Shown here in pieces: positions 21,301 to 47,872 of a DNA stretch of 64,000 nucleotides. The stretch comes from Phoronis australis (lineage: Eukaryota > Animalia > Phoronida): NCBI GenBank assembly GCA_002633005.1, contig NMRA01000280.1:16080-80079 (forward strand), read 5' to 3'. The notes under the pieces were generated by a model. That model was not told the DNA's origin and did not search any database. It saw nothing but the letters and a program-made list of their open reading frames with translations. Each line of letters opens with the position of its first letter. Position 1 is the first letter of the stretch. The position numbers and the translations under genes are program-made.

Positions 21301-24300
21301 AATAAGATGGAATCCGTCGAATTGTAATCACTGTGTATGCTCTTGCTTGATAGCTTGGCTGAGGTTTATGTCTCCTCTAACATTTTTGGTTTCTCAAATA
21401 CATAGGCTTACTTGAAATATGCATGCTGAGAAGAACTTGTGAAATCTGAGCAACTTTCTCTCCGACACAGCATGGCAGACTAATGAAGTTTATTTTCTAT
21501 TATTTTTTCATAAAATTATAATTAATGCTTTTCCGCTTGTGCAAATTCTGTGCCATAGCTGACACCAGACAAAATTTTGAAAATTTTTAGGCATTCACAA
21601 CAATGATAGATGCCTTTAAAAAAGAAAAAAAGCTCAATTTTACGAATTACTTTTGCCAAAATTGGTGAGATTTTACCGTACTTCCAAAAATCAACACATA
21701 TCAAAACAGATGACATCAGGACATTGATTTGTACAGCCGATCACCAATGTCGTATGGTCTCATATTGTAAACTTCATCCACGCGTGTATACTTCATGTTT
21801 TGACAGACACTCGCTCGCACAAAATATCAATGGCTTTATGAGTAGTCTTCATGGCAGCTAAATTCTATCTCACATTGCCTTGTTAGGCATTCTTTCATGG
21901 AACCCAATTCTATTCGTCCATGTACTTGCATTAAAAGACAAAAGTAATCAGGCAAAATACCCATTTCCCGTCGTGACGACTAGTTCTGTTAACACCAAAG
22001 ATGACTGGGTGGCAAAATTCTGATCAGAAAATTTCCTTAAGCTTCCTTGTCTAACATTCCTGTTCTAATACCCCCTTCATCCTTGTTCATAATTAACGAC
22101 TACCTCTGGCGACGAACGACTACCTCTGGCGATGAACGACTACCTCTGGCGATGAACGACTACCTCTGGCCTCTGGCGATGAACGACTACCTCTGGCGAT
22201 GAACGACTACCTCTGGCGATGAACGACTACCTCTGGCGATGACCGACTGCCTATGGCGATGAACGACTACCTCTGGCGATGAACGACTACCGCTGGCAAT
22301 GAACGACTATCTCTGCCGGTGAACGACTACCTCTGCCGATGAATTTGGCATCCGCCCTGACGCTATGATAGGGAATTCTAGTTATCATTTGGTCTAAATA
22401 TGTTTGACTTGTAGAACTGTTTATTGTAGATGCACAACATGTTGGACAAAGTTCTGAAAGTTCTATTGGATGATCCCAAGAAACTTTGCACCGACTCATC
22501 ATTTTTGGAGGGCTACGATTCCATCAGTGTTCGGACAAAGATGAAGGACTTCCTTGATCTATTTTGCCGCAAACTTGATTATGATGCCCTCTGGAAGGAG
22601 CTTGGTCTGGACAGACTGGTGGACGAGGTCAAGACGTGGGTATGTGACCAATTCAAATCTAATCTTTCACAGTTTTCAAAAAGTTAAGCGGTCCCCTGTC
22701 AACATTTCAACATTTCATGTCAAAATAATTTGGCAACAGACACTCCTTTGCACAAAATTTGTTGAACACACAAAATTTGTTGAACACACAAAATTTGTTG
22801 AGCACACAAAATTTGTTGAACACACAAAATTTGTTGACCCCACAACAATGTTCACAATTAATAATTTTCATCCAGGAATTCAAAAATAGGCCATCTAAAA
22901 TGGACTCCTATAGTTTGTTAAGCCGTCCACGACCAATGACGCATGACAGCATTTTGACCTCATGTCAAACTGCTGTAATAGTGTATAATTTCATAAATTT
23001 ATCTTATCTATTAAACCGATTTATTCTGGGCAGGGAAGTGAGTTTAAACTTACTTTAGGTGTTTGTACAAGTGCTGAACTACCCATCCAAATACAGCTAG
23101 GGTGTCCAAAATTGAGGTTGAAGAGCTGTTTCTCCCTCTAAAGAGAATGTCTGGAATTAAAATGATCGTCCCTTGTATTTGCAGTGCGGTATGCAGTGCA
23201 CAGTGGGTGCATATCTACATTGTGCATTTGTCTTGTTGATTATTGTCACAAATTGTATACTCCAAATTATTCAATTAAATTGTCTTCTAATTGATAAATA
23301 AATGAAATTCATTGTGCTATGCCCACTCTCAACACGAGTTTACTCAGAATTTGTTTAGGTTCATAACACAATATAGATATTCATTAGTGAGAATCCTGTT
23401 TGCAAGTATCATACAGTGGACGTGCTGTGGCAACAGCACTTATGTCACACCAAGATCACGACTAGCGTAGTCACAAGCAGATGGATTAAAACGAGGCCAA
23501 GTTGCATAGACTCAATTGTAGCGCTGTGCCTGAGGGAACTGTGGCAATTCTGAAAAAAATGCTTGGTACCAACATGACTGCATAGTGACAAAGTTGTTGA
23601 ATGCAACAGAATGATACGCATGCTGTACTTTCTAATATAACATGAGAAGTTAATGAATCAGTAACACTGCATTGAAAATCCCCAATTTCTAACTGCAACG
23701 GCTCCATTTCCTTGCCGTTTTTTTGGTCGTAACCTACTAGACCTGGTCCAGCGCCGGGCGGCAGCATAAGCATCACAATGAACCGCATCGCAAGGGACAC
23801 CTGTCAGGCGTCTGAGGTACTAAAAATTTGGCGACCTCAAGTCCAAATGGCAAATTGGGATTTTACTCAACTCACCAATTGCAATTTGGGCGTTTTTTTA
23901 ACACCGGATGCTGAGTTTTGTAACTTGAATGAATATGTTTAGCTTTTGATTTTAATTTTAAAGAGAACAGTGATCAACAAAGATTGACAATTATAGGCTC
24001 TCTGGTCATAGCCAGTGTGCCCAGCTATAATTTATATAACTTGGCAATTTGAGGTACCTTACACTCAATATTAGCTAGTTCAATTAAACGGTTAACTCTT
24101 TCTTAAGATTATTTATGGGGTTACGATTTATACTCTCAAACGTTTACTTGTCAGCGATGATGTTATTCAGTTTCTCTTTGTACTCGTTCTTATTCATTAT
24201 GACATACGCAATTGTCTTATCGGACTTCCTAATAACAATGTCATCATTGTCCCTAAGTTGCTTGGCAGCAATACAAAGTTCTTTTCTTAATATTGTGAAA

Positions 24301-25234
24301 TTTCTTGAATTGGATTTGTTCTTTGTTCCTTTTGCCTTTAGCTGGTCTTTAATATTTGTATTAACATTGACAAAGCCACCTCTCTCAAGGTTTTCAATAT
24401 CTTGGTAAAGTTTTTCAAGTTCAACACGTTTTTTGTACAAATCAAATCGGGGTTTAAGGTGTACATTCATTCCCAGTGACAAAAAATTATGTTCACCTTC
24501 TGTAAGTTGATGATCAGACAAATTCATGTATGTTTTCCGCTCTTGCGGTGTAACTATAGCTCCTTTATATAAATTCTCTAGATTTTTCATGATCGTGTTT
24601 GTAGACTTAATCTGCTCTTTATCAACATAGGAGTGGATACGTTGCAAAATTTCATGCATCAAGTGACCTTTTTGCGTTTCAATTCTCTCCAATTCATGCT
24701 TGACTGTTTTGATTTGACTAGTCAAACTGCTAATGTTAGATTCCGCATGATGTAATTGTCTTGTAACAAGTTGTTTCCTATACTCAAGAGTGAAGGCTTC
24801 TTCTCGGGTTGCACGGTCACGGAGCTAAATATCTGTGTATTTGGGTAGCAGACATTCTTTTATACATGTTTCATTGAAAAGTAAGCTGTTCTTGGCTTTA
24901 ATTAGTTTGTACAACAAACTTTCGTAGTGTCTACACAGGTGTTTAATGTAATTGTTCTTGTTTCATGTATCTTACAAGATAGCGTTTATGATTTTTAAAT
25001 TTATTTGCCTTTGATGATTGATGTATAGTCGAAGTACCGCTACTGTTTTATTATGAAATGTTTTGTACAAAGTTGTATTATATATTTACTCATATGTATG
25101 TGTTTGTGATGACACTTACACTGGGCGATCTACTATATCAACTACCATCCGATGAAAGGCACTTGTGTAGACACTACGAAAGTTCGTTGTACAAACTAAT
25201 TAAAGCCAGGAACAGCTTACTTTTCAATGAAACA

Positions 25235-28200: not shown

Positions 28201-31200
28201 TATTGCTATATGTTGTTGGCTATGTAAAACTCCCACAGTGTTGTATTTTCACACAAAACAACATTTTTGCCCAGCAAACCCTGGTGTCTTCATGCCTCAC
28301 CAAAGTTTCAAGGAATTGTGATTACGAAATACCATAGTGTATTTAACCATGTCATTTTGTGATTATACGGTATTTTCCTGAACTTTTGCCCATTCTTGAT
28401 TTTTATGCATCCATGTATCTCTTCAATAAGCAGCCTTCCACTGGATCTTCTGTGGGGATTGCTGTCTGTCACTGTAGGCAATTTAATCTGAGGTGTAGTA
28501 TAAGAATTAGTGCACACTGGAAAATCAGTAGTGCTTGGTAAATGTTCATTCTTCAAACATCGACTATGCAGTGTAATGCAGTGTCAACACTATTGGAAAA
28601 TAGTCCTCTTGCCTAATTCCTTAAAGTCTTTAACTTAAAATGCCAATGTGGCTCCAGTATCCGAAAATATTTAATAAATAAAAGCATAATTTCGATACCT
28701 TTTCGTTATATTTTTTTCGCCTTTCGTACCACAATCGTTTTTTCCTGTATTTGAACCTGTTCAGTGAGCAGATAATCACCGACTGTCATCGGTTATTTCC
28801 GTACCCACATTTCAAGCTCGTCAGTTCAGGAACTAATGTCCTGAACGCCGCCATTTTTCCTTGTAATTTAATGCGCTATCGCTTGTTCGAAAAGTCTTCA
28901 TTATTTTGTTTTATTAGTTATATCTCGTGATTCGTTTGTATGTATAGTGTATTTATAGTTCGTAGTTAGTGGTCTTTAAATTTTTTTGGAATGTTACTCG
29001 TGCTTTTTGTTTATTATGTTAAAATATCATTGGTGTTTAATTCTTGTTACGTAGGGCGGTCGAACCTAGAAACCAATATGAGTTGAACCAATTTTTTTTT
29101 CGTTTTGAAAAAGTACTTTGCTTTCATTCAGGAAAGATAATGCATCGTACTCAGTAAAAATAGAAAAAGTATCAAAATCGGGGCAAGCAGTGCAAAGTTA
29201 TTGCAATTTTTTGGCGAAATTTAGGTCACTTTGTTTGGATGGGGTTGGCCATCTTGGATGACAGCGAGATAAGTTATGAGTTTAAAACTTTGTGTAATTT
29301 TTTTTCGCCAACAATTTACGGTGAAATCTAGTGAGACATATCTTTACTTACTATTTCAGACTCGCAGTTGTTACTTATTACCGTAAGTGATAAATGTGCT
29401 CACAATTTCCATTGCACTTAGTCTTATTTCTGTCGGTACCAACATCATGGCGACTTTTGCTGAACTGAAAGGCATGTTCAACCGGTCACTTTGTAATTTG
29501 TGAAGATTTAAAGGACAATGCCACCCAAAAAACAAAACATATTTTGTATCAATTTAGATCGAGTAGTTGTACTCGACAACGTCACGTTCGGTTACGTTAC
29601 CTGACACCTGACGGCAGACTGAGGTGTTGAAATTATCCAATGACGTCATTGGTTTCAAACGCAGTCTGTTCAGCAGTTCACAACATGGGTTACAGGTGTC
29701 AGCTTATCGCTTGAATTCATCGTTTAACACCAATAAATTATCAAACTTCGATGTAAAACCCTTAAAAATACACCGAGTTTTTATGAAAACGTGTTGTTTT
29801 ATTTCGCGGTTACGGATTTACTGGAATTTGGACACACCGTAGCCTGCAAAGGTCGGCAGGCCAATTTACCAAGGTCCGTAGCACTGATGAGTTCGGAGAT
29901 AAATTCGAAGTATTCTTCCGTGAAATACAGACAGGAGAACATAGATCTGTGTTGTTATACATGTGATTTTTTTAGCTCTAAACACACAAAACGCTTGTCA
30001 TCCCGGCCAATGGCTCGGAACCCGATCAGGCCCGTTGCGGCCGGACTTACTCGTTATCCCGGCCAGTGGCTCGAAACCCGATCAGGCCCGTCGCTGCCGC
30101 CGGAACTGGCACGAATATAAACCAGCTTGAGTTGAAAACTAAACCTCCAGTCACGAAAAGACTATTATAATAGTGAGCCAAAGAAATAACGTGCACGTAA
30201 TTATTTAATGTGAATTAGCCACGAAACTGAAAATCTACTTACTTGTCGGGGGCCGCGATGTCGGGTTGCCCTTCCACAGACCGTCAGGGCAAAGGTGGTA
30301 CAGTAACAATGATTTGAATAATGTATTTGTATTTCTAAAATAAAGATTCCCCTAACATGTGACCATATCATATAAAATCGAGTAATTGTTTCACAACAGC
30401 TTTATGTCAGCAAACACAGAATTAGCATGCGCTCTCACTTCCTCGGTGCCCGGTCAATTACCTTTGTTGCCGGCATCAAAAGCCGGTAACGCAGTGGTTT
30501 ATTCATTGCTGGCTTCTCAAAACATTTGCACTCACGAGCACTCCAAGGCATTACAAATTGTATCTAATGAGACTTTGTTTCAGCTTTATATAAGCATTGG
30601 TTAGGATGAGAATAATTCATTTTGAAACAGAACGCAGAATAATAAACGTCTACTAATAAACGGCATCTCGCCCCGTGCCAATCCCGACTTAGTCAAGAGC
30701 TCAGGTGACGAAGACTTCACGGGTCGGATCGTTAGGTTTCACAGACTGAGTTCGAACCGGAATACACTGATCAAAATATACTTAAGAGACGCCGTGAACT
30801 TGCACAGGCAACGAAACATATGGATAATTCTTTGGTAAGCCAGAATTCATCAGAGAAATTACTGTCGACGAAATGCCGGCCACAGACACGGAGATGTTTC
30901 ACGGCCTCGTACTTGCTATGAACAGCCTTCCTTTCATTCTTCACTACCGCGAACCACTTCCTAGGCATTTCGAGGAAGTCGAAAAAACGATATACCCGCT
31001 TTCTTCGCAGCTTAATAGTTCGGACAAGCGGGAACGATGCACCGCAATATATTGGCATTTACTCTGCAGACGTCGCTGCATCGTTTCTCACCTTCCTCAC
31101 AGGTTAACGCAACACCTCTCGGCAAGGTGAGATCGACCGTATAAGAGGCGATATTGATATAGACCGATTAAGACGGTAAAAAAGACTAATTAAATCGGGT

Positions 31201-34200
31201 GGCATTCTCCTTTAACGTTGATACATTTTGACAATCGTTACATATAAGGAACTTTGTTCAATTTTCATGTTTTTGTGCAAAAAGATAAGGTCTATTCGAA
31301 TTACCGTAAACGTTCGGGTTAACGCCCTGGGCGGTTAAATTGGCAAACCCAAAAAATCGGGGGTGGGCGGTTAACCAGACATGGGCGCTTAAACGTGAAA
31401 CTTCAAAAAATCCAGGGTGGGCGGTTAACCGAACATGGGCGCTTATCATAGTGCGACAGGCAAGCGCCCTGGGTGGTTAATCTTACCTTGTGATCTAAGT
31501 ACCCACACCACACACGTAGTCGTAGGCCTACTCGGAACGCGTAGCACTTTCAAAGAGCGTTATCGTCACGTCGCCACATGACGGGAAAATGTCATAACAG
31601 CGGATGATCCTAACAAAGGTTATCATGCCCTCAGATTAGTTATTCACTATTAAATTTACAGAATTGCTGAGTAATAGCCCCGTGCCGTCCTGCGGTCTTG
31701 TTATTTAGCCCTGTAGTGTAGAGCGCAGACGACCAGTGACCACGCAGCCTCTACTTGGATTGCAACTATTTCATCTTGCTAAAGTGCGCGCGTGCAAGCT
31801 TCACGTGTTGCAGAGGTCACAGCAGACATCAGATTTATGGTTACAGTCTCGTACTAGCTGCCAAGTTCATAGTCAGAGAGCAGTTTTAAAATTGGTTGTA
31901 ATAAAAGTTTGAAAACCTTAATTCAGGTTTTTTTTGTGTTTGGGATGTTTATAGTCAACACTCCGTGACTCAATGACATTTTCAGCGTATGGTTCTGTGG
32001 CTTGCTGTTTTATCTCGACTGCCCGGCATTGCTCACTTGCCGTTGCGCCAAACATGCTCGGCAAAGAAGTAGGCCCAAGACAAGAATCGGGGTTAAGCGG
32101 CCGTGTGCCACTCGTCAATCAAGAATAAAATTTCGAGCCACGGCATAAATATGTGATAAAACGCTACAAAACAGCGATGTTTCAATTCATAAACGATCAC
32201 CTTACCAAACTTCGTGGTGGAAAAACATTTATTTTTCATGCAAGATGTCCAGATTATCCTATTTATATCACTTGCAATATCGCACTGCGGCACTGTTCGG
32301 TCCCGTTGTTAGCGCGCAATGTCTCAGTCGGCTGACAATCGTGACTTGGAAATGCCGTCAAGTAATATAACGGCCTCTTTCAATATGCATCTCGTTTTTT
32401 ATGGCCAAAGATAGCGGCGGGATTCAGCACGCGCGTAGGGCCTACGTGCGAGTCACCTGTCAATCACATGTTGGTGTCAAGGTAACATGCACTCCAAAGT
32501 GTGGGAACTTGCGCGCGTGCACCACTACAAAGTCACACATCAAAAGAGAATAGCGACAGTCCTAAGTAACAGAAACGGGCGTGACTATATACTTTTAACC
32601 ATTGTCTCATTTCTCTGGCCTGATTTTTTCGAATATATGTTTTATCAAGTACACTGCAGACGAAAACTCAGCGCGGCAGACAAAGTCGCTGAAAGCGGAG
32701 GTTTTGACGCCGGCGGCGTTCTTAAACTTTGCAAACATGGGAAGAAAATAAAGTGACAAAAACGTTCAAGTATTATATTTTGAAGTGAGTCCATGACCCA
32801 AGACAATAACTCGTTACTTGTATAATTGCAATTCACATTGATAAACCACCGTCTCGGAGGCCCGGCGTCGTTGCGCTCATTGTGATCATCGTTCTTTTTC
32901 TAAAAGTCGGGGAATCGCGCATTTCCTTAGCACTGGGCGCTAAATCTTCATTCTTTAAAAGTCGGGGATGGGCGCTTAACCGAGAGGTGGGCGGTTAAAT
33001 CGAAAATCCACCTAAAGTAGGGGGTGGGCGGTTAACTGAGCATGGGCGTTAACCCGAACGTTTACGGTATTTTACTGTGAGTTTCCCATTCAGGTGATCT
33101 TACACTAAGCTAAAAAATAGTTGCAATAATTTTGAGATGGTTTTTTGTTTGACTGTCAACTGCTGTTCAAGGCTTCATTAAGTGTCACAAAATGATTCAT
33201 ATTTTTCTAAATTTTAAATCTAAATTGCTTTAAAATCATGTTTTGTAACTTGTTGTTTTCTTAATTCAAGCTATCAAGTCAACAATATTATGAAGAATCT
33301 TAATTAGAGAAATAGGCTATATTGGATTGTGAAGCTTCAAGCCTCCAATTCTTGTTACTTGCAACTTTATGTTTTTTAAATCATGTAAGGAAACAGTATT
33401 CGCTCACCATGGTAATAGTTACGTGCATGTCCACTTTCATATCATGAAAACTTGTGCTGTTGGACAGTGTTTGTAATGCTTAAATGTTATAAATTACTGT
33501 GCATTCTAAGTTACTTATTATGGTATCAGGTTGAATCATTTTGGCTTACATAGCGTTCCTATACTGAGATTATTTCAGTTTTGACTGTTGTCTAGTAGAT
33601 ATAAATGTCAACTACCTTCAAAGTCTTTAAGTAGTAATACACTTTATTCACGTTAAGACAAATTACGATTAAATAAAATTAGGGCTTATGGAAACTCTGT
33701 GAAGAAACTGAAGCCAAATTAAAGAGTTCCGACTGAAAGCACTTGATTTTGATTTGAACTATGGAATGCCTAAATGATTAAATCATAATCGTCCTCTGAT
33801 TTGTTCTTTCATTTCAATGATTAAGTTACCAAAGCATGATATGATATAATTAGCTTGCCATACATAATATGTTCACTAGCATCTTCACGCTTCTTGATGC
33901 CTTGGGTTCACTATTATTTCAATAGATTAATACATCAATTTAAAAATCATCGCACAGTTGAAAACCACGTTCACTGGAAGTTTTTCATTTCATGGGTTCT
34001 TGCAATTCTGTTATTGAGATTTCCACCTTCACTCAAATTACAATTATCAATGTGGTTCAGTTGTAAGGTCACTTCTTTCGTACTCACTACTTAATAAATG
34101 AAAAATGATAACATTTTGTATTGGACTTGTCATACTTATGTGCTCGAATGAGCCCTCTATTTGGAGAAATGGAAAAAGGTTTGCCTCAGGCAGAGAAGCA

Positions 34201-37200: not shown

Positions 37201-40200
37201 AATCCATCATGTGTTCTAGAGTAAGAGGGATGGGTTCAGTTGAAAACTATATGTAGGAATAGACAAGAGGCATTAGGAACAGCTACAGTGAGTGGCCCAG
37301 CAACATACCGTTTGCAAAATACTGTAGGCGCATGTCAATACCTCGGCGTTGCTCTTGTTCAATTTTCACGTTGTGAGTGCTCATAACTTTTTCAAAAATT
37401 TGGCTGATCTTGATTAATCTTTAGTACAGAACCTGAAAATGGCAAAGAAGGTACTATTCTTATATTTTATGGAAAAGTGAGGAAACTAATTTCCCTGCCC
37501 ACTGTATTGTGTCCTTAAAAGGTTCCTGAAGTGCGATAACATGCATTTTTAGTGTCATTTAATTTATGGATGAAGTCTGTATCAGAAATCCCATCTTTGT
37601 TATTCTTACACTTTTTTGTAAAAAAAGCATTTTTCCAATGTTAATTCCTATTGGCTAACGCGCGTCTGACATATCACGGAGGCTGCACCATGGGTGAAGG
37701 CTGCTGAGATAAATCAAGCTTATTATGTATATAGCTCATTGGGTGAATGCCTCTCGGCTACAGAACTGTGCTTAAAGGCGAAGGCAACCTTTTTCCATGT
37801 CATTTTGAGCTAAAATAAGGTTAGTTGATTATCCTAGACATATTTTTCATTTAATTACAGCTTTTCGTAATTTTATTAATTACTCGTCGGCTTTTCCGGA
37901 AGTGACGTTTTAGGAGGCAAGCGCTTCCCGCCACTTGGTTTTGCGTTGAGCTTACTGTGCGAATCTGTTCTATTCTACTTTTGTTTTGTGCTATTTTTCA
38001 CCAATTGTCGCCACCACTTTCCATCGGCGAGTATTCTGCGGCAAGATAGGTTAGTAGAGAACTCAACTGCGTTGGATTTAGGGATTGTTTAGTGTGTTGT
38101 AAGCTGAAAATGGCTGGAGTCGGTGACCCGTATCACAGTGACAGTAGTGTGAGTGACGGAGACCTTGTTCACAGCAGTGGTGACGAGGAATTTTTTCACG
38201 GACATTCAGTGGGTGGGTACATGTTTGAGCCCGAGTACAACGAGGCAGAGTACACACAGGCACAGGCAGCTGTTGAGAGAAACGAGGCGGCTACTGAAGA
38301 CAGACGTGGTGACACATCTTGGTGCAAATGCACTGTGTGCGTTGTTATGCCTACCTCAATTGAATGCTTGTGCTGTTCCGAGTTCCACATCAATTATCTT
38401 TTTGGTCTCTTCCTCCATTAGAGTGTATGTGGTATACTTGGCGGACCGCCCTGGTGAGTCAGACAAGTTCTCCTTCTCCATGAATTCCGCCACCAACTCG
38501 AGATGTTGTGACATGTATGCGTCATTGACAACTGGTATTAAATAGGAATTCTGAATGTTGTTGAATGTTGTTTTCGAAAAAAAACTTGACTTTTCCAAAG
38601 TCCATCATTGTCTTCACCGACTGAAACGTGTTTCCAGTGAAGAGCACACCACTGGACATGGTTAAGTGGACCTCCGGCATACCACGGACAGAGGAACAAC
38701 TGTCCCACTTGCCAGAGTGTCCCGTGACACACTCCCACTGGATGGTGACCTGAGCACCCAAACTGCTTACATTGTGTCGTGTGACTCCCTCGCCACACAC
38801 CTGGCACCTTCTAAATAGCTCCAACACTTTAGACAAGTCCACAATAAACTTATCAAAGTTTGGCTCACCGATCTGTTCACTGGACGACGAACTGTCCTCT
38901 TCACTGGGTGTCGAACTGGGCCTGTAATCACTCCCACTACTCAATATCGCTGCAGGGCTGCTTAGAGGCTCTGGGCTGGAGAAAACAGCACAGGGCGAAT
39001 CACTACTGGTTCCAGGAATTGCACGCTCTGGGGTACGTTCGGAGGCACGGGTGACAGTAGATGAAGTGCCTCCACTGGCTCCAGTCACTGTACTGGCCAC
39101 AGCTCGCGAGGCTTCTCGCTTCAAAAACGCACTTCTCGGGGGTGGCGACGGGGCACTGCCGGGAATCAACACAGACGGAATGGCATCCTTCTTCAAGCGT
39201 TGTTTCGCGGGGACCTTCATCAGTTCAGCGTACAAATCCCTTTCGTAATCGGACGGCAGAAAGTGCTTGCCACACACACGGTAATTCTCCACTGCTTTGT
39301 ACGTTGCGTGGACGGGTAACGCTGCGTTCTTCACACGAACGAGCCAAGTACGGCGAAGTGTGTCATCCATCGGAAAGCGATGCAAAGGCACTCCCAAAGC
39401 GCGCGTGAGCCGATAATTACTACATCCCGGTACGCAGCAACAGTGTGGCATGTTGACTGACTAGTAAATGAAAGCGAACGACGACGGAACTTAACACAAC
39501 CGAGGTAGAACAATGACTGACTCGGCAGCTCTCACAGTCAGACTATGTGAAAAGAAATTGGCGGGAAGCGCTTGCCTCCTAAAACGTCACTTCCGGAAAA
39601 GCGGACGAATAATTAATAAAATTACGAAAAGCTGTAATTAAGTGAAAAATATGTCTAGGATAACCAACCAACCTTATTTTAGCTCAAAATGACATGGAAA
39701 AAGGTTGCCTTCGCCTTTAATGTGTATAATTCGTCTGCGATCTCGGCTCTCAAAAGTTCATAATACAACTTGACTTAACTGCGGTGTAGTGTTGACTAGT
39801 GGAACGATGCCGTTCTTGGGGTACCGACCATTAAAGGGCCCTGACCGGACTGTGTTGCCTTACCTTGGTGAAAGGTGTATACTAAACATCCAGCAATCGT
39901 TGCACCGATGTGGGTAAAAACTGATCAAATAAAATCTCTGACACAAAATTAGTGTCATTAGAAATTACACTCTTCCTTGAGTAAACTAAATTACTTACTG
40001 GTGTTCTGCTGTTCACTCTGCTGCTAAAATTTGGGTGCGCTCTTTAAGGTCGGCTTTTGGCGCCGTCACCTGTTGCCTTATTGGCCAGTTCCGTTCCCCA
40101 AGTTGTTCTTCTTCCAAGTATAACAAGCGATCAAACTCTTCTTCGAAATTGTGTACATGTCACAACAAATTATTGGAGCTGATTTCATTTCCTTACACAT

Positions 40201-43200
40201 TTTTAGTATTTTAATACCAGGAAACCGAATTTCATAAAAAAATTTGCTCCTGCGAAGCTGTCATCATCTCCGGACAAAATTTGTTGCAAAATTTTAGAAA
40301 TAGCGTGTATTGAGCGTACTGTTTTCTTTGTTACAAAAGGCTGAGAATTATGAAATAAAATAATGTTTACAAGACTGTTGTTCACTTAAACGGCTCCAGC
40401 GGGCAAGGTGAGTGTCGGTTGACACCCAGATAATTGCACGCTCCCCTGCCGGTTTATAGCTCTACATGTTGGCGGGGTTAAAGTCGAAGGCAACCTTTTT
40501 TCATGTCATTTTTAGCAAAAATAAGGTTCGTTGATTATACCAGACATATTTTTCACTTATGTACTGCTTTTCGTAATTCAATTAATTGCTCGTCGTCTAC
40601 TCCGGAAGTGACGTTTTTGGGAGGCAAGAATTTCGCGCCAATTTCTTTTCATGTAGTCTGACTGTGAGAGCAGTCGAGTCAGTCATTGTTCTACCTCGGT
40701 TGTGATAAGTTCGGTGGTCGTTTGCTTTTGCTTACCAGTCAGTCAACATGCCACGCTCTTGCTGCGTACTGGGGTGTACTCATTATCGTCTCACGTACGA
40801 GAGGAAGAACTGTCCCACTTGCCCGTGTGTCCCGCGACACACTCCCACTGGAGGGTGATCTGAGCACCCAAACTGCTTACATCCCGCCGTTTGACTCCCT
40901 CGCCACACACCTGGCACCTTCCAAATAGCTCCAATACAAGTCCACAATAAATCAAACTTAGGCTCATCGATCTATTCATTGTATGGCGAACTGTCCTCTT
41001 CACTGGGTGTCGAACTGGGCCTGTACACACTCCCACTACTCAACATCGCTGCAGGGCTGCTTACAGGCTCTGGGCTAGAGACAAAAGCACAGGGCAAATC
41101 ACTGCTAGTTCCTGGAATTGCACGCAGTGGGGTACGTTCGGAGGCACGGGTGACGGAAGATGAAGCGCCTCCAGTCACTGTATATAGTGGCTACAGCTCG
41201 CGGGGCTTCTCGCTTCAAAAACGCACTTCTCGGGGTTGGCGACGGGGCCCTACCGGGAATCAACAGCGACGGTATGGTACCCTTCTTCAGGCGTTGTTTC
41301 GCAGGGATCTTCATCACTGAATTCAGCGTACATATCTCTGTCATAATCCGACGGAAGAAAATGCTTGCCACACACTCGGTAACCCTCCACTGGTTTGTAC
41401 GTTGCGTGGACGGGTAGCGCTGCGTTCTTCACATGAACGAGCTAGCCAAGTACGGTGAAGTGTGTCATCCTTCGGAAAGCGACGCAAGGTACCCAAAGCG
41501 CGTGTGAGACGATAATGAGTACATCCGGCACTTAGCAACAACGTGGCATGTTGACTGACTTGTAAGCAAAAGGAAACGACGACCGAACTTATCACAACCG
41601 AGGTAGAACAATGGCTGACTCGACAGCTCTCACAGTCAGACTATAATGAAAAGAAATTGGCGCGAAACTCTTGGCTCCCAAAACGTCACTTCCGGAGTAG
41701 AGGGCGAGAATTTAATCAAATTACGAAAAGCTGTAATTAAGAGAAAAATGTGTCTGGGATAATCAACGAACCTTATTTTTGCTAAAAGTGACACGAAAAA
41801 AGGTTGCCTTCGCCTTTAAAGTTTCGCAATGAGGTGATGAACAAAACTACCCGGGCTATGTTCAGAGTCTAACGGAGCTCAACACACACTGCTACTGGTA
41901 CCTAGTTGGGTTTTGAAGATAGTCTTCATGCAGCTTGCTGGCTGGTTAGGCCCCGCGATAAATCAAAGTCACAGGAAAGAAAAACGAAAAACGTTGTGAG
42001 TATGCACATGTTGATCTGTCGACTGGACTACGTATTTGCACGGGTAGTGACCTACATCTCTTTTTGCTGTACAGCCTCAGTGACGTCACGAAAAAACAGC
42101 GCTTGCAGTGGGGCTTTACGGAACTAATAAATTTTTACTTTTCAAAGTAAAAAAGAAAAATACTGTGCACTATTTAGGAATGTGTGGATGCCAGTAACCA
42201 ACCTTTATACTTTCAAAATTCATATTAAAATGCTGAAACACTGTAGTTCAGGCCTTTCTTAAAGGGATGAGATGGTCCTTTTTGTAGCTTTGTTGTTCGC
42301 GGTGCACCAAGTGAGCGCATGTCAGTGGTTTGCATTGCTCAGTGTTCGATTCTTGTATTGATCGAGTGTTTCACTCGTTTCAGCTGTTCCAAAAATATGA
42401 TGATCAGACCTTTAGTGAAGTATCTTTCATCAGTGAGCTGGGGCAATCAGTGTTCCTGGCAGACCATGTGTTGGCTATGGTGAAGGCAATTGCACAACAG
42501 GACCGTCAATCTCTAAAACCATGGATGAATAGCACAGTGTGGCGTCAGAAATTGGATGCAGTGCAAGATAAAATAAGAATCGTGTTTAATGACAATGAAC
42601 AGTAAGTAGCTTGCGATGCCAGAATTATCTGGTAGAGAAATTGGGGTGTTCTTGAGTAAATGAACAAGGCATTCTTGAAGATCAACTATTAAATCTAGCT
42701 CTATTGTCTTAAAATGGTGACAGTTTCATACTTTATCTATTAAGCTGATTCAACATCAATTAAAATTTTGGAGCTCAACCTACACTGATTTAAATGCCAA
42801 TTGAGGAATGTTAGTTCTTATTTTGTGTATAGCTTTTCTAGAAGTCACGACCATCTCCGTGTCAAATTTTGAGAACATTATGCAATTTATCTGAAAGAGG
42901 GCACTTGTTATCATTTTTTTCCTGGAAATTTCCAAAGGTGCTCTTTCGCAAACCTCTGTTATAAAATATCAATATTTTTGGTATGTTTTTAAGGTGGAGG
43001 AAGAAGTGTACATTCTGTGCGTTCTTAAAAGTGCCAATGATTGTGTACGGTTCCCAACATTATGTTGACACGTGGTTAGTCACCATAATTATAGCGCCAT
43101 TACAACGGTTCATAGCTAGAGGACTGTCAAAATATAAGTTGGTCATTCGTCAACAGAAGTGTTGTCGAACTTCTGTTGTAGTACCCACGCTGTCGACAAA

Positions 43201-46200
43201 GTAAAAGCCTGTGGCTCTGTGAAGGCGCTTTGGCAGCAATTTAGGATTCTGGAAGCACCACAAATTCACACTACTTTTTTTCTAAAAAACACAGTAATTT
43301 CATCTGAACAGACGTTTCTGAAAGAGCACCCAGGGGGGAAATCCTTGGCACATGAACTTTGTCTTGTGCTAGCAGGTAGAATGTAAACAATCCCATGCGC
43401 TGCTCAAGTCTCGTTTCAGAGAGAATTCAGAATTCATGAGGTCTTAAGAAAGACCTATTGCACATTTGATGGACCCAGTGATTGTCAAGGAATAGCTTTT
43501 TGTCTACTCTAGATATATCTTTCTTGCAGTTCTCATTCATGATAGGCCTGTTCTGGATTCAACTCTCCTCTTCCACGGAGGTTGAAAAAAATGCATTACA
43601 TGGCTTAATTAAAAATGGAAGAACGTTAAATTGTGCATCAAAATTTTATATTTTCGTTTTTGCATATTTGTTGCTTTCAGCATTGCAACAATTACTGTAA
43701 ATGCAATAATAAAAGTTTGTTTGGATGACAATGATGAATTACAGTAACTAAGATATGAAATAGTGGCTAGTACAGGTAAAGAACCAAGACTAGTGTGTGA
43801 CTCGTGTTGCATTATGGGTAATTACCTCATAGTAGGAACGGTGCTGTGCTATTTCAGGACAGGCCCAGTGAGGTGGAAACAGGTTCTAGAGATTCACTCT
43901 CTGAGCAACTCCCAGCGTAGTTAAAAGCCGTTGCTGTTGTTAATTTCTAGGACGTATTGACCTTTAGAATCACTGTGTCAAAGACCAATGTTGGTTTCAC
44001 AAATCGTTTTTTGTGTATTATTTTGTCTTTCTCAGTTCACCTTGCAAGAAATATGTGTGGGGTCATCTGTTTATTCTGGCATAAATGACATTGACATTCT
44101 AGGTCTCTGGACAGCGTCTATCGGTATGTAGAATCAAGCTTGCCTGTGATCCGTTGGAAAATGCTGAACAGTGTGACGGTAGCACTTTCTGCTGCGGCCA
44201 GACATGTAGATGTGTTTGTCATTGACGATGTCCTCAAGCCTTTGGATGACTTAATTCAGGGTAGGTAAATTCTTGCTGTTGTTGCTTTTTAGTTTACGGA
44301 TGATTAAAGCATTGTTAATGTGTTGATAGTTACATGTATAATGGCTCACTGAAGGCAAAACTGCCAGGTGAGATATAAGCCCAAAGTGATCCAGCCGTCA
44401 TCTTATGCAGTTTTTACGTCGAGGTACCATAATCAAAACAATGACAGGTCATCACAATTCAAATACATATCCCAGGACCCTATCAGTGTGGCATATATGC
44501 ACGCAGATGGAATTGTCTCTTGTGCATTGGCATGTCTTAATTTTGGTCTTTTTTCCCTTCTTAGTATGCATCAATCATTTTGTGAGGTCAGTTGCGAAGG
44601 CTATTTGAGTTTGGGAGCTTTGCTTTCCCAAAGATCTAAACTCCACAATTCAGGGTAGTTATGGCGCCAGTGGGAAAGCAACATCAGTCACATTCTGGGA
44701 TCTGTTTCATGGAAAGCGACTTACGTGGAAAATTTGGTCTCATGCTTCCACGTTGCCATAGTTACTGACTAAAGGTTTAGCCATGTAAGGATTAGCACGT
44801 CACAGCTTAGTAGGAAATTAAATTAGTATACAAATTATCTCTGTCAGTAACTTCTACCAGTTATAAGTATATTCTTGAATACTTTTTATGCGCCCACATA
44901 TTTATATGTGGACGCATTATTGCGTCATGTCCGTCTGTCCGCCGTCCGACGTCCGCTGCTCTATCTCCAAAACCCACAACGTACGTTCATGAAATTTTGC
45001 ACATGCGTTTCTATCATGGATGGGAAGGCATGAGCGAACTTTCGGACGGATCCGACTCTCGGTGTGCCCCCTAGCGGCAACTCTAGTATTTTACGCTTCC
45101 CCTCTATATCTTCAAAGGTCCTCAACGTATTGTCATAAAATTTGGCATATAGGCATCTATTAGTGAGATGACGCTATCCTCCTGTTTTCGGGTGGGATTC
45201 GAATAAATTGCGCCACCTAGGGGCCATTTTTGCTGTTTTCGAGTCTGTTTTTGGCGTCCACCCCTCTATAAACCAAACTGCTCTGAGGATGATTGTGGAA
45301 ATTGGCATGTATGTTTTTACTATGAAGAGGACGGCTGACTATGATTTTATGAAGATTTGGACTATTGTGGCGCCTAATAGTGGCAGTTTTTTTTTCGCTC
45401 GCCATAGCTGTGTCTCCTAAACCGTTGGCAAGATCTTTACTAAATTTTGGAATTGTATATGATGTTGACAATGGATGATGACGACTTTTCGAGGCATCTG
45501 ATTACCGGTGTGCCCCTTTTGGCAATTTAATTTTTTTACGTTTACCTCTATCTTCAAAGGTCCTCAACATATTTTCATAAAATTTGTCATGTAGGCATCT
45601 GTTAGTGAGGTGACGCTATCCTCCTGTTTTTGGATGGATTTGACGTAGTTTGCGCCACCTAGTGGCCATTTTTACTGTTTTTAGTCTGTTTTTTTGGCAT
45701 CCACCTCTCTATCAACCAAACCACTGTAAGGATGGTTTTAGAAATTGGCATGTATGCTGACGATGATTTTCCAACGACTTCGACTACTGTGGAGTCTCTT
45801 AGTGCCAGTTTTGTTTTTTTGTGCTCATGGCTGTGTCTCCTAAACCGTTTGCAGTATCTTTGCTAAATTTAGAAAGAGTGTCTTAATGATGTTTACAATG
45901 GATGACAACAACTTTCGGACGGATATGACTACCAGTGTTTCCCCTAGTGGCAATTTTCATTTTTAGGCTTACCTTTGTATCTTCGAAGGTCCTCAACGGA
46001 TTATCAGGAAGTTTGGAATATAGGAATTTTATTGCTGAGATGATGCTATCCTCCCGCTTTTAGATGCAATCGGCGTACTTTGCACCACCTAGTGGCCATT
46101 TTTCCTGTTTTCGAGTCTTGTTTTTTGGTGTCCACCCCTCGATCAACCAAACCATTCTGAGGATGATTTTGAAAATTGGCTTATATGTTCTCAGTGTCAA

Positions 46201-47872
46201 AAAGACAGTTGACGATAACGAATTCGACTACTGTGGTGCCTCCTAGTGTTAGTTTTTGTGTTTATCATTCATAGCTGCATCTCCTAAACTCACTGCAGGA
46301 TATTTATTAAATTTAGTAATTGTATTTTTATGAAGCTAACAACAGACGACGACGTCTGTCAGGCGGATCCAATGAACACTTTGCCACATGGTGGCAATTT
46401 TATTTTTTCTGTTTCCTTTGTTTCTCTGAAGTTCCTTCGCAGATTTTTACGAAATTTGATAAATAGCTTTCTATTAAAGAGGCGATGGCATGTTCCCATT
46501 TGCAGATGGATTGGACGTTTGTTCGCCATCAAGTGACTATTTCTATGAAACAAATAAACAACCCTAGAAGCGCTCCGTTTGCGTTCATGGACGCATTTAA
46601 ACGCTCTCCGTTGCTCTTGTTACGTTTGTTAAAGTAAATTTTAATTATTTTTTAGAAATAGTTATGTGGAACGTGAGGCCAAATTTCTGACTAATTCGTG
46701 AGTCACTTTTCATTAACTGACCCTAGGATGGGGGTTCGTCCTTATTGTAATCTGTCAACTATTGAGCTCACAATGTGGTGGACAAATTAATTTCTCTACA
46801 AAAATAAAGATTGCGACAATTTTAATCTATTGTTACCTTTTCTTTGCATTCTGTAGATGCCATTTAAGCAACATTTGCAGCTATGTAATTGGTCTTTGAA
46901 AAGTGAAAAATTTGGGAAATTGGCAATTTTGTTTGTTTTTGTGCGAAATAAGTGAAGTACTTAGGTTTAATTATTGTGCGACATAATTTTCTTTGGGTAC
47001 AAGAAAGTTTCATTTGTTCATTCTCTGTTGTAGGTATTCGAGAGTGTGAGAAAAAAGGTAAGAACTGAAGATGCTTGTCTTTTTCATAATTTTAAAAATA
47101 AGAAAAGAATTCTATGAGAGTCTGAGTATTATGATTAAGGGATCTCCGTGGGCAAAAATTCAAACGCGATTCAAACTACATATTGTGTTTGTACCCTAAT
47201 ATTCCTTTGTGCTACTTCCCAAAATATTCGCATCCGTTTGTGTCGCATGAAAATTTCATATCGTTTAAATTTGGTACTTGTTTTAAGTGCTATGTACATG
47301 TGCTTAATGATGTTGCACCACACAAATACATACGGCTGATAGCATCTCGTGCAACAATTGGCAATTGCCGAACCCTGCCGAAACATTTTAGCATTTTTAA
47401 CTTAAACCTTTTAACTGTAACGTTTTGAATTAATGCTCCTGTGAATCTGATTATGTATACACATTTTTATGGCACAAGTATATAACTTTGACTGTGAAAT
47501 ATTGTTTTGATAATTCATGTTTCCTTTTGCAAATACCTTCTGTTTAGTACATGTACCTATTCCAGACCAGACCTGGGTTTTCAAATGAAGAAATATCAAT
47601 CTGACCTTCCCATCAGCCGTTTGTCCAGCATGTTAATGTTGCTGGCTGTCACCTACGCTTACGACTGCCTCACGTACTCCTCTCTTCTTCGAATTTCTGT
47701 AGGTCTCAGTCAGGCAAGCATCATCGTTATCTCGACAGTGTGTGGTGCCATAGCTCTGCTCATTATCATCGTTATTGTGATCGTTGTACGCAAGAGATTG
47801 AACAAAGTTTCCAGCAGTTTCTTGAGCGAGGCAGCAGAAAACCCGACCTATGACAAGTATGAACGGTTCTAG
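256..47872 (+). CDS. Gene A: uncharacterised 872-aa single-pass type-I membrane protein (signal peptide, Cys-rich module, 3 helical repeats, TM, NPxY/YxxPhi tail); 16 exons
   Basis: Manually spliced exons: 256-313, 11685-11966, 13992-14119, 16680-16889, 18790-19001, 20134-20255, 20761-20900, 22430-22639, 25333-25562, 27989-28131, 35799-35929, 36446-36628, 42384-42601, 44103-44260, 47034-47057, 47703-47872. All introns are GT-AG, all phases match, and the total of 2619 nt gives 872 aa plus TAG with no internal stop. Extra exons in the 11-kb first intron cannot be excluded. Confidence 0.85.
1290..2076 (+). repeat. 393-bp near-identical direct duplication around a single N (probable assembly overlap artefact)
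   Basis: 1290-1682 and 1684-2076 differ by a few substitutions; N at 1683. Confidence 0.85.
2622..2674 (-). repeat. tRNA-derived (SINE-like) fragment
   Basis: - strand CTAGACCGGCAATCTAG stem-loop followed by B-box GGTTCGATTCC; no 5' half or acceptor stem. Confidence 0.45.
7327..10656 (+). mobile_element. Second copy of the same HINE family, interrupted by two insertions (about 7640-8930 and 9750-10045)
   Basis: Same 5' TATGTGGGCGCAT and (GTCC)n, same tandem unit, and 3' TGGGCGCAT-CAACGCTCCGCGTTG-CTCTTGTT. Confidence 0.7.
7680..8901. mobile_element. Insertion bounded by a 20-bp perfect inverted repeat, nested in a HINE copy
   Basis: AGCCAGCACGCAGGTATCAC (7680-7699) and GTGATACCTGCGTGCTGGCT (8882-8901); exact ends and TSD not resolved. 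Confidence 0.5.
11685..11966 (+). CDS. Gene A exon 2, Cys-rich module (10 Cys)
   Basis: Acceptor ttttgtag, donor CAG|GTAAGT, phase 1-1; DSRISCRNSFDCTYPAVC...CRC...C...C...CQC...PYCLHP. Confidence 0.85.
13992..14119 (+). CDS. Gene A exon 3 (repeat 1, exon a)
   Basis: tttcag|...AAG|GTATGC, phase 1-0; GYTDWFQHAVPQLGFVPEVVEKSPAVFESLQWTFLSVMKKGNK. Confidence 0.85.
14585..15530 (+). repeat. Diverged HINE-family fragment including the 3' end
   Basis: Similar unit motifs; ends GGGGCATATGAACGCTTTGTGTTGCTCTTG. Confidence 0.5.
16680..16889 (+). CDS. Gene A exon 4 (repeat 1, exon b)
   Basis: cacag|...ATG|GTAAGC, 210 nt, phase 0-0; VCEWISC...LQALVCK...VVRM. Confidence 0.85.
18461..18520 (+). repeat. 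18-bp tandem repeat GTGTACCTGTGCAATCAA, about 3 copies
   Basis: Read directly from the sequence. Confidence 0.9.
18790..19001 (+). CDS. Gene A exon 5 (repeat 1, exon c)
   Basis: catag|...CT|GTAAGT, phase 0-2. Confidence 0.85.
20134..20255 (+). CDS. Gene A exon 6 (repeat 1, exon d)
   Basis: ttgtag|...G|GTACAT, phase 2-1; HSGDLKAWLKSVGKC...MKKLL. Confidence 0.8.
20761..20900 (+). CDS. Gene A exon 7 (repeat 2, exon a)
   Basis: ccttcag|...CAG|GTAGGA, phase 1-0; EFTSIDDAIGTLKEKLPQTKKLLDMMDYSLTPAVVGTIELALRNPLQ (not in the ORF track). Confidence 0.85.
22096..22342 (+). repeat. 20-bp minisatellite GAACGACTACCTCTGGCGAT, about 12 copies
   Basis: Head-to-tail tandem copies with no spacers. Confidence 0.95.
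22430..22639 (+). CDS. Gene A exon 8 (repeat 2, exon b)
   Basis: ttgtag|...TGG|GTATGT, 210 nt, phase 0-0; ...KLCTDSS...DLFCRKLDYDALWKEL... Confidence 0.85.
22751..22840 (+). repeat. 18-bp minisatellite CACAAAATTTGTTGAACA, about 5 copies
   Basis: Read directly from the sequence. Confidence 0.9.
24035..25235 (-). mobile_element. Penelope-like retroelement remnant: ORF N-terminus on the - strand plus an inverted pseudo-LTR on the + strand ending in (TA)n
   Basis: - strand reads HLCRHYESLLYKLIKAKNSLLFNETCIKECLLPKYT...NLSDHQLTEGEHNFLSLG...AAKQLRDNDDIVIRKSDK...YKEKLNNIIAD...NP, the pre-RT region of Penelope-like elements; 24866-24941 is the inverted copy of 25160-25235. Confidence 0.8.
25233..25290. 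repeat. (TA)n microsatellite
   Basis: Read directly from the sequence. Confidence 0.95.
25333..25562 (+). CDS. Gene A exon 9 (repeat 2, exon c)
   Basis: tttcag|...AG|GTGTGT, phase 0-2; ...LPRWMRGTHWSK... Confidence 0.8.
26436..27963. mobile_element. Non-autonomous TIR element with subterminal repeat arrays (EnSpm/CACTA-like), 1528 bp
   Basis: TA|CCCGTGTGAGAATTT...AAATTCTCACCCGGG|TA; arrays of (AG)CGTGTCAAA at about 26450-26760 and mostly inverted at about 27740-27950. The superfamily is inferred from CCC..GGG termini, 2-bp TSD and the arrays. Confidence 0.7.
27989..28131 (+). CDS. Gene A exon 10 (repeat 2, exon d)
   Basis: ggccag|...G|GTGAGT, phase 2-1. Confidence 0.85.
29512..31211. mobile_element. 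Third Kolobok-type element (1700 bp), different family with short TIRs
   Basis: TTAA at 29508-29511 and 31212-31215; 15-bp TIR AGGACAATGCCACCC / GGGTGGCATTCTCCT (14/15 match); THAP remnant near the right end. Confidence 0.8.
30771..31058 (-). pseudogene. THAP domain remnant
   Basis: Frameshifted CIVPACPNY*AAKKAGISFFRLP followed by RKWFAVVKNERKAVHSKYEAVKHLRVCGRHFVDSNF; aligns with the THAP starting at 39451. Confidence 0.75.
31304..33067. mobile_element. Non-autonomous Tc1/mariner (Tc2/pogo-like) element, 1764 bp
   Basis: TA target duplication; 24-bp perfect TIR CCGTAAACGTTCGGGTTAACGCCC; subterminal GGGTGGGCGGTTAA repeats at both ends; no transposase seen. Confidence 0.8.
35799..35929 (+). 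CDS. Gene A exon 11 (repeat 3, exon a)
   Basis: tgccag|...GTG|GTATGT, phase 1-0; ...YDLPTVFEE... Confidence 0.85.
36446..36628 (+). CDS. Gene A exon 12 (repeat 3, exon b)
   Basis: ttccag|...CTG|GTAGGT, phase 0-0; ...DACDHSS...RLVCSLDTAKLEKEL... Confidence 0.85.
37896..37933 (+). promoter_or_regulatory. ETS-CRE composite plus E2F-like site inside the Kolobok TIR (mirrored in all four long TIR arms)
   Basis: CCGGAAGTGACGT at 37896-37908 and TTCCCGCCA at 37925-37933; the second element has CCGGAAGTGACGT plus TTTCGCGCCAA (40631-40641); the motifs lie 110-200 bp upstream of the inward-facing ATGs. Confidence 0.5.
38110..38421 (+). pseudogene. KolX-like accessory protein N-terminus (P2X7 C-terminal ballast / nanor-like Cys-rich domain), truncated at about 38385
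   Basis: Acidic N-terminus, YMFEPEY, then RRGDTSWCKCTVCVVMPTSIECLCCSE (WCxCxxC-MP-ECLCCxE); it then runs into antisense transposase sequence. Confidence 0.8.
38385..39451 (-). pseudogene. Kolobok THAP-DDE transposase, N-terminal part (309-aa ORF, then a frameshift and truncation)
   Basis: THAP C2CH motif (MPHCCCVPGC...HRFP...W...RVCGKHF...LKKDAIPSV), S/P-rich linker, KFIV...LELFRRCQVC...CVTGH..KW zinc ribbon. After a frameshift in the A8 run (38577-38584) it reads FFSKTTFNNIQNSYLIPVV...DSPGRSAKYTTYTLM, matching the Kolobok GDGRxDSPGHSAKY motif with GDGR deleted. Confidence 0.85.
40482..41815. mobile_element. Second Kolobok copy (1334 bp), symmetric derivative with two transposase-side ends
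   Basis: TTAA at 40478-40481 and 41816-41819; about 310-bp inverted repeats (40482-40795 and 41504-41815), each including the THAP start codon; the interior is a decayed copy of about 38690-39400. Confidence 0.88.
40796..41549 (-). pseudogene. Decayed THAP transposase fragment
   Basis: Fragments in several frames: KNAALPVHATYKPVEGYRVCGKHFLPSDY, KIPAKQRLKKGTIPS, LELFGRCQVCG...WECVAGHTGKWDS. Confidence 0.85.
42384..42601 (+). CDS. Gene A exon 13 (repeat 3, exon c)
   Basis: tttcag|...CA|GTAAGT, phase 0-2; ...LKPWMNSTVWRQ... Confidence 0.85.
44103..44260 (+). CDS. Gene A exon 14 (repeat 3, exon d)
   Basis: ttctag|...G|GTAGGT, phase 2-1; SLDSVYRYVESSLPVIRWKML...LDDLIQ (not in the ORF track). 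Confidence 0.8.
44883..46621 (+). mobile_element. Helentron-associated interspersed element (HINE / DINE-1 / pearl-like), apparently full length
   Basis: Starts in a T run; 5' ATGCGCCCACATA with an adjacent inverted copy TATGTGGACGCAT; (GTCC)-type microsatellite; about three tandem ~435-bp units; 3' ATGGACGCAT, short hairpin AACG-CTCTC-CGTT, then GCTCTTGTT. Confidence 0.75.
47034..47057 (+). CDS. Gene A exon 15, 24-nt microexon (GIRECEKK)
   Basis: Strong acceptor ttctctgttgtag and donor AAG|GTAAGA, phase 1-1, frame-preserving. Confidence 0.65.
47703..47872 (+). CDS. Gene A exon 16: TM helix and cytoplasmic tail
   Basis: ttctgtag|; IIVISTVCGAIALLIIIVIVIVV followed by RKR stop-transfer; tail ...ENPTYDKYERF*. 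Confidence 0.85.

Follow-up and report, generated by a model that had tools for sequence, protein, structure and literature searches.

An internally deleted Kolobok element with stumps of a THAP transposase gene and a KolX gene in Phoronis australis

A 64,000-nucleotide stretch of the Phoronis australis genome (the window) contains an element that had been predicted, from its letters alone, to be a Kolobok transposon with two convergent genes, one for a THAP transposase and one for a cysteine-rich accessory protein akin to the C-terminal ballast of the P2X7 receptor. The locus raises the questions of what kind of element this is, whether it can still move by its own means, and whether its accessory protein might be a nucleotide-sensing cofactor of transposition. 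We are confident that it is a non-autonomous, internally deleted Kolobok of the Kol0 lineage, likely moved into its TTAA site by the transposase of another copy. Its features and those of a neighbouring copy are as follows.

37772–37775: left target-site duplication, TTAA (from the flank sequence and the empty-site joint)
37776–39716: the element, 1,941 bp, with TTAA at both flanks
37776–37933, plus strand: left TIR of 158 bp, starting AGG, with 153 of 158 bases equal to the right TIR
38110–38385, plus strand: 5' part of KolX, 92 codons (from Pfam P2RX7_C, relatives and alignment)
38380–38385: deletion junction, GAGTTC, which fits both genes
38380–38576, minus strand: second transposase frame with the start of the DDE core, DSPGRSAKYTTYTLM (from translation and a Kolobok motif match)
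38577–38584, minus strand: run of eight A with one extra base, the transposase frameshift (from the reading frames)
38579–39451, minus strand: 5' part of the transposase, ATG at 39451 (Pfam THAP, E 4e-15; PDB THAP11, E 3.1e-7)
about 38672–38809, minus strand: CxxC...CxxxH ribbon (weak Pfam match only)
about 39170–39439, minus strand: THAP domain (Pfam)
39559–39716, minus strand: right TIR of 158 bp (from the TIR alignment)
39717–39720: right target-site duplication, TTAA (from the flank sequence and public contigs)
40482–41815: non-autonomous sibling of 1,334 bp between two TTAA copies, about 86% identical to the first element

Both ends of the element start with AGGCGAAGG, and in an end-to-end comparison the likeness of the two TIRs drops past about position 167. 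The terminal 18-mer together with its TTAA occurs four times exactly in the window, at the ends of the element and its sibling, where 0.07 occurrences are expected by chance; one further site has three mismatches. The window was compared with the contigs of four public runs (X1, X5, X6 and X8), of which X5 is RNA by guess only, its contigs not being read as expression. Two of the four runs (seven contigs of X1 and one of X5, none of X6 or X8) contain an empty-site joint that runs from 37771 directly to 39717 and skips 1,945 bases, which is the element and one TTAA. The flanks in these contigs are about 10% different from those in the window and are themselves repeat, so the empty-site contigs most likely represent paralogous sites; these nonetheless define the ends of the element and its 4-bp duplication. 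The predicted TTAA-flanked element with 158-bp TIRs is therefore real, and with a single TTAA across the joint and AG...CT ends it has both the target-site duplication and the RR...YY termini of Kolobok elements. We note that the element is inserted in another repeat, at about 37580–37771 and 39721–39850, whose summed depth in X1 reaches 982, and that a further repeat lies at about 39860–40060 in the public contigs.

The gene that reads inward from the right end is, as had been foreseen, that of a THAP transposase. From its ATG it encodes, in order, the N-terminal THAP domain expected of a Kolobok, a Ser/Pro-rich linker, the ribbon and the start of the catalytic core; the cysteine pattern of the predicted zinc ribbon is present, although its Pfam score is weak (E 0.067). 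The motif DSPGRSAKY sits in the second frame, and the A8 run that separates the two frames is one base shorter in one X1 contig (depth 205 of 3,275). After 38461, 21 bp are missing; they are present in one X5 contig (depth 88), in which, by eye, they read LLGDGR and place the first catalytic Asp (D1) just before DSPG. The transposase is truncated about 30 residues past the DSPG motif, and the second Asp, the DxxH and the Glu are all deleted, so that of the DDD/E triad and the C/DxxH motif the D1 region alone survives, D1 itself being deleted here and present in that X5 contig. In Data S5 of Kojima and Bao 2022 (PMC9587614) the motif GDGxxDSPGxxAK also appears for Kolobok-1_XT, -1_BF, -1_AP and -1_NV, and DSPG occurs five times in supplement file 3 of that paper, once outside the motif; the remnant of about 357 codons compares with coding sequences of about 2.2–2.4 kb in Xenopus rows. 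The transposase frame is broken by the frameshift, by the loss of D1 and by the central deletion, and the present copy is not autonomous and makes no working protein.

The acidic YMFEP protein predicted to read inward from the left end begins at ATG 38110 and is the 5' part of KolX, the second gene of Kol0 elements. Its stump runs through an acidic N-terminus (Asp and Glu make up 23% of residues 1–66), YMFEP, WCKCTVC and ECLCCSE to the junction, past which the frame consists of about 11 codons of antisense transposase with a stop at 38421, making 103 residues in all. It scores 23.9 bits against Pfam P2RX7_C, 0.4 bit above the cut-off of 23.5 (E 4.6e-5). The six bases GAGTTC at the junction are likely a microhomology. 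The central deletion itself, placed at about 38385 by the original prediction, is confirmed on the KolX side, where sibling contigs hold the KolX frame further, with different bases; on the transposase side we infer it from the resemblance of IIDVEL to ILDFQL of Kolobok-1_BF. The deletion had been said to fuse the two genes, and this is a tail-to-tail joining of DNA; an in-frame KolX-transposase fusion protein was rejected because the genes lie on opposite strands. In a second deleted form, found in all four runs and in protein entries P0001 and P0104, KolX goes on as DEAK and is joined at 38647.

Contigs in X5 (depth 88) and X6 (0 differences in 197 bases) span the junction seen in the window. 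In X1 the summed contig depth, which is not a copy number, is 13.6 in unique flank and 2,190 to 150,033 inside the element, which marks the family as abundant and the deleted forms as having themselves spread. The closest contigs are about 1–1.5% different (4/348, 3/282 and 4/261) and other contigs among those listed 9–15%, indicating young and older subfamilies, and the amplification of deleted forms implies that some transposase was still active once the deletions had occurred. The near-identical TIRs had suggested that intact partners may still exist; none was found in X5, X6 or X8, where the depth at 38379 equals the sum of the deleted forms (189.9 versus 88.1 plus 101.9 for the two forms in X5, 9.16 versus 3.93 plus 5.23 in X6, and 36.4 versus 36.4 in X8), in contigs that drop rare variants. 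Word-indexed searches, which are weak evidence on this point, gave no longer relatives of either stump, and the viral contigs gave no match by protein or by TIR pattern. The single metagenome match (L001) comprises 19 low-complexity residues and was rejected.

The sibling element lies 760 bp downstream of the first and has two transposase-side ends and no KolX: a short THAP start on the left and a long one on the right meet in a 4-base overlap near 40792–40795. Similar opposite-strand joints are found in X1, X5 and X8. As this copy lacks the KolX-side end and yet is paired with a TTAA duplication, nothing on the KolX side past the TIR is likely to be required in cis. The sequence CCGGAAGTGACGT is present in all four TIRs of the two copies (37896–37908, 39584–39596, 40602–40614 and 41683–41695) and equals the first 13 bases of an ETS-CRE promoter motif (PMC3464117). 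It might promote inward transcription of both genes from their ends and is invariant amid varying neighbours; this reading is weak, because other invariant runs are similarly long. A third, unrelated Kolobok-like element of 1,700 bp occupies 29512–31211, with TTAA on both sides and short TIRs with ends AGG(A/C).AATGCCACCC; it holds a THAP remnant on the minus strand at 30774–31058 (E 1.2e-4, just under the cut-off), and its scanned frames contain no KolX match.

Kolobok elements are characterised by TTAA and RR..YY ends, and those of the Kol0 lineage by a transposase accompanied by KolX (Kojima and Bao 2022, PMC9587614). TTAA, AG...CT ends, THAP and D1 motif agree on the predicted Kolobok identity, and piggyBac elements, which also use TTAA, were rejected by the AG ends, the THAP domain and the D1 motif. 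Motif likeness and KolX point to the Kol0 lineage, from about 30 remaining core residues. With Kol0 elements of the Kolobok-1_XT type this copy and its family have in common TTAA, RR..YY, a THAP-DDE transposase with LxGDGxxDSPGxxAKY, and KolX with the ballast cysteines (PMC9587614); the D1 motif is nearest, by eye, to that of Kolobok-1_BF in the same source. The present copy differs from them in being internally deleted, frameshifted and devoid of all three catalytic residues. The T2-MITE and XKol elements of Xenopus (PMC6004289) are similarly non-autonomous Koloboks with TTAA and AGG ends that are moved in trans, whereas the present form, at 1.9 kb, keeps recognisable stumps of both genes. 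Its standing with respect to Repbase and Dfam aside, the element adds one more Kol0 family.

The original prediction also held that the WCxCxxC...ECLCC protein is a homologue of the P2X7 ballast. A HMMER search with the KolX stump gave 102 proteins at E<=0.001, one or two of which are low-complexity noise; 96 have CxCxxC and 83 a YxFEP-like motif, and P2RX7_C was matched at E<=0.01 in Pfam by 28 of the 29 relatives scanned. The stump alone matched no PDB sequence. A profile built from the stump together with 30 relatives matched P2X7 residues 463–584 at E 4.5e-13, the sole significant match among PDB sequences (the next has E 0.8). It also found 123 proteins at E<=1e-10; those of them that are named belong to sponges, cnidarians, molluscs, a brachiopod, a ribbon worm, echinoderms, an acorn worm, amphioxus, fish and frogs. 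These matches, which identify the accessory gene as the predicted KolX, were followed by the proposed structural comparison with P0010, a full-length relative from a scallop that shares 43% identity with the stump across residues 15–91. Its AlphaFold2 model (79 sequences, pLDDT 79, pTM 0.66, with the first 60 residues of low confidence) has P2X7 at Foldseek ranks 1 to 14 (best E 1.1e-4, probability 1.00; the next match has E 2.1) and a TM-score to P2X7 of 0.44 over the query, including the low-confidence first 60 residues. The ballast fold is thus predicted for this full-length relative, and the sequence profile and the model of P0010 together show that KolX and the ballast are homologous.

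Work by McCarthy in 2019 is said to have settled which seven cysteines, in three clusters, bind zinc in the P2X7 ballast. The stump keeps five of these (C72, C74, C77, C88 and C89) and the other two are deleted. In 61 aligned rows, which include two truncated family members and near-duplicates, every row has the first five (61/61, in part a result of how the rows were chosen) and 59/61 have the other two. WCxCxxC and LCC are common to the stump and to the P2X7 ballast/ZCD/Nanor domain (PF20478; PMC7016195), and CIT, RxxAYR and LPxC are common to that domain and the full-length relatives; unlike the receptor domain, KolX is a stand-alone protein with an acidic N-terminus and YxFEP (the 83 of 102 matches above). 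Many KolX entries (P0005, P0033, P0024, P0100 and others) break off at one point immediately ahead of the RxxAYR helix, and no more than 11 of the 102 extend to LPxC; the shared end point suggests a conserved intron at which prokaryotic gene callers stop. We also note a pipefish gene model, P0087, in which an N-terminal THAP domain and a C-terminal KolX domain are in one predicted protein; this could reflect either a real fusion or an error in the model, and a similar tick model is given by Rump et al. 2020 (PMC7016195). That paper surveys the domain in animals; Kojima and Bao 2022 (PMC9587614) state that KolX has the ballast fold and conclude that a fusion involving KolX gave rise to P2X7, and that Nanor probably represents KolX in domesticated form. 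The idea of KolX as the source of the P2X7 ballast has accordingly been in print since 2022 and is not new here.

These observations fit a parent element that encoded an entire THAP-DDE transposase and a KolX some 200 residues long, with either gene reading inward from its TIR; this structure rests on relatives, since the family yielded no full-length member. A deletion between two short GAGTTC matches, probably during gap repair after excision, would have removed both 3' halves, and the shortened form, with both TIRs, would then have been amplified in trans by an outside transposase, able to bind the TIRs and to cut at TTAA. Deleted copies holding only gene stumps were indeed amplified, and KolX need not be encoded in cis, since the KolX-less sibling is also TTAA-flanked. 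Intact KolX may be a two-zinc, helical accessory subunit that would help the transposase to assemble or act, its conserved Arg patch binding phosphate of either a DNA backbone or a nucleotide. We favour such a putative zinc-stabilised accessory subunit over nucleotide sensing, which we regard as the less likely reading. The literature searched, which is without most subscription journals and Repbase Reports, contained no functional study of KolX.

Nucleotide sensing had been suggested because the P2X7 ballast binds guanine nucleotide; intact KolX would bind GDP or GTP like the ballast and tie transposition to the guanine-nucleotide state of the cell. In rat P2X7 the GDP contacts are R546, H547, R574, R578 and K583 (Rump et al. 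2020, PMC7016195). These positions were counted in relatives chosen by sequence, 57 of 223 proteins passing a motif filter that demands xY[RK] and [LIV]PxC and none of the five counted positions, and 48 remaining after those at >=80% identity were dropped; P2X7 numbering was taken from the profile alignment to P2X7. Among these 48 full-length relatives R546 is conserved in 47 and R578 in 43 and H547 is partly kept (19/48), but R574 and K583 are each absent from all; the R574 position is Val in 47/48. This pattern agrees with that given by Rump et al. 2020, except that His547 is also found in several cnidarian proteins. An Arg occupies the position of P2X7 F566 in 45/48 relatives and might replace the lost charges, and a G[KRH] loop occurs in 40/48 and a [YFV]xG[FYL] tail in 39/48; the Arg at 566 and the loop indicate that a basic patch is retained in different form, one that may bind GDP, DNA or a protein. 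That invertebrate domains may bind GDP was already raised by Rump et al. 2020 (PMC7016195). The GDP contacts of P2X7 are therefore conserved in part, and much speaks against a sensor: the KolX match spans only P2X7 463–584, whereas the GDP cavity of P2X7 is closed by a helix of the neighbouring subunit, and even there the role of GDP is unknown (PMC9859053); the stump ends before every GDP contact, so that all five positions and the whole helical half are missing from the present copy; and nucleotide binding alone would not show sensing. We consider GDP/GTP binding coupled to transposition improbable for intact KolX. A more specific version, in which KolX is a stand-alone guanine-nucleotide-binding zinc protein whose Arg at 566 completes a phosphate pocket with R546 and R578 and which gates Kolobok transposition, seems to us slightly more improbable still; if it were true, an intact member of this abundant and recently amplified family would be the simplest system for learning the purpose of the P2X7 ballast. 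The present dead copy cannot address what KolX does or why the ballast holds GDP and zinc, questions for which intact Kol0 elements are better material.

Two other roles can be weighed against that of a zinc-stabilised transposition subunit. Plant transposons encode anti-silencing proteins, and by analogy KolX might act on the host, for instance in anti-silencing or as a transcription cofactor. Its acidic, low-confidence N-terminal 60 residues next to a zinc cluster would suit such a role, and Nanor has been proposed to act in transcription (PMC7016195); acidic disordered N-termini are common and unspecific, however, and we judge this putative host role rather unlikely without dismissing it. 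It is hardly credible that selection has kept either stump, the 103 residues of KolX or the THAP part, as a domesticated or inhibitory product. The identical 103-residue frame does occur among the proteins (P0103, on a 1,480-base contig), and three near-identical entries have a KolX frame free of stops up to the junction, but copies only about 1% apart are expected to have open frames without selection. The stump has moreover lost two zinc ligands and the helical half, its tail, antisense transposase in either case, is not the same in the two junction forms, and TIRs and target-site duplication are intact, as in a passenger.

The rest of the window was surveyed by a Pfam scan of 83 of its 93 other frames of at least 75 codons, which identified no host gene and gave one THAP match and two weak matches below the cut-off. 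A 226-codon frame at 24147–24824 on the minus strand, which has only a sub-cut-off coiled-coil match in Pfam, presumably resembles, judging by eye, the part that precedes the reverse transcriptase in Penelope-like retroelements. A diverged repeat with a unit of about 440 bp forms two arrays, at 7327–10656 and 44897–46621, on the same strand and 68–78% alike.
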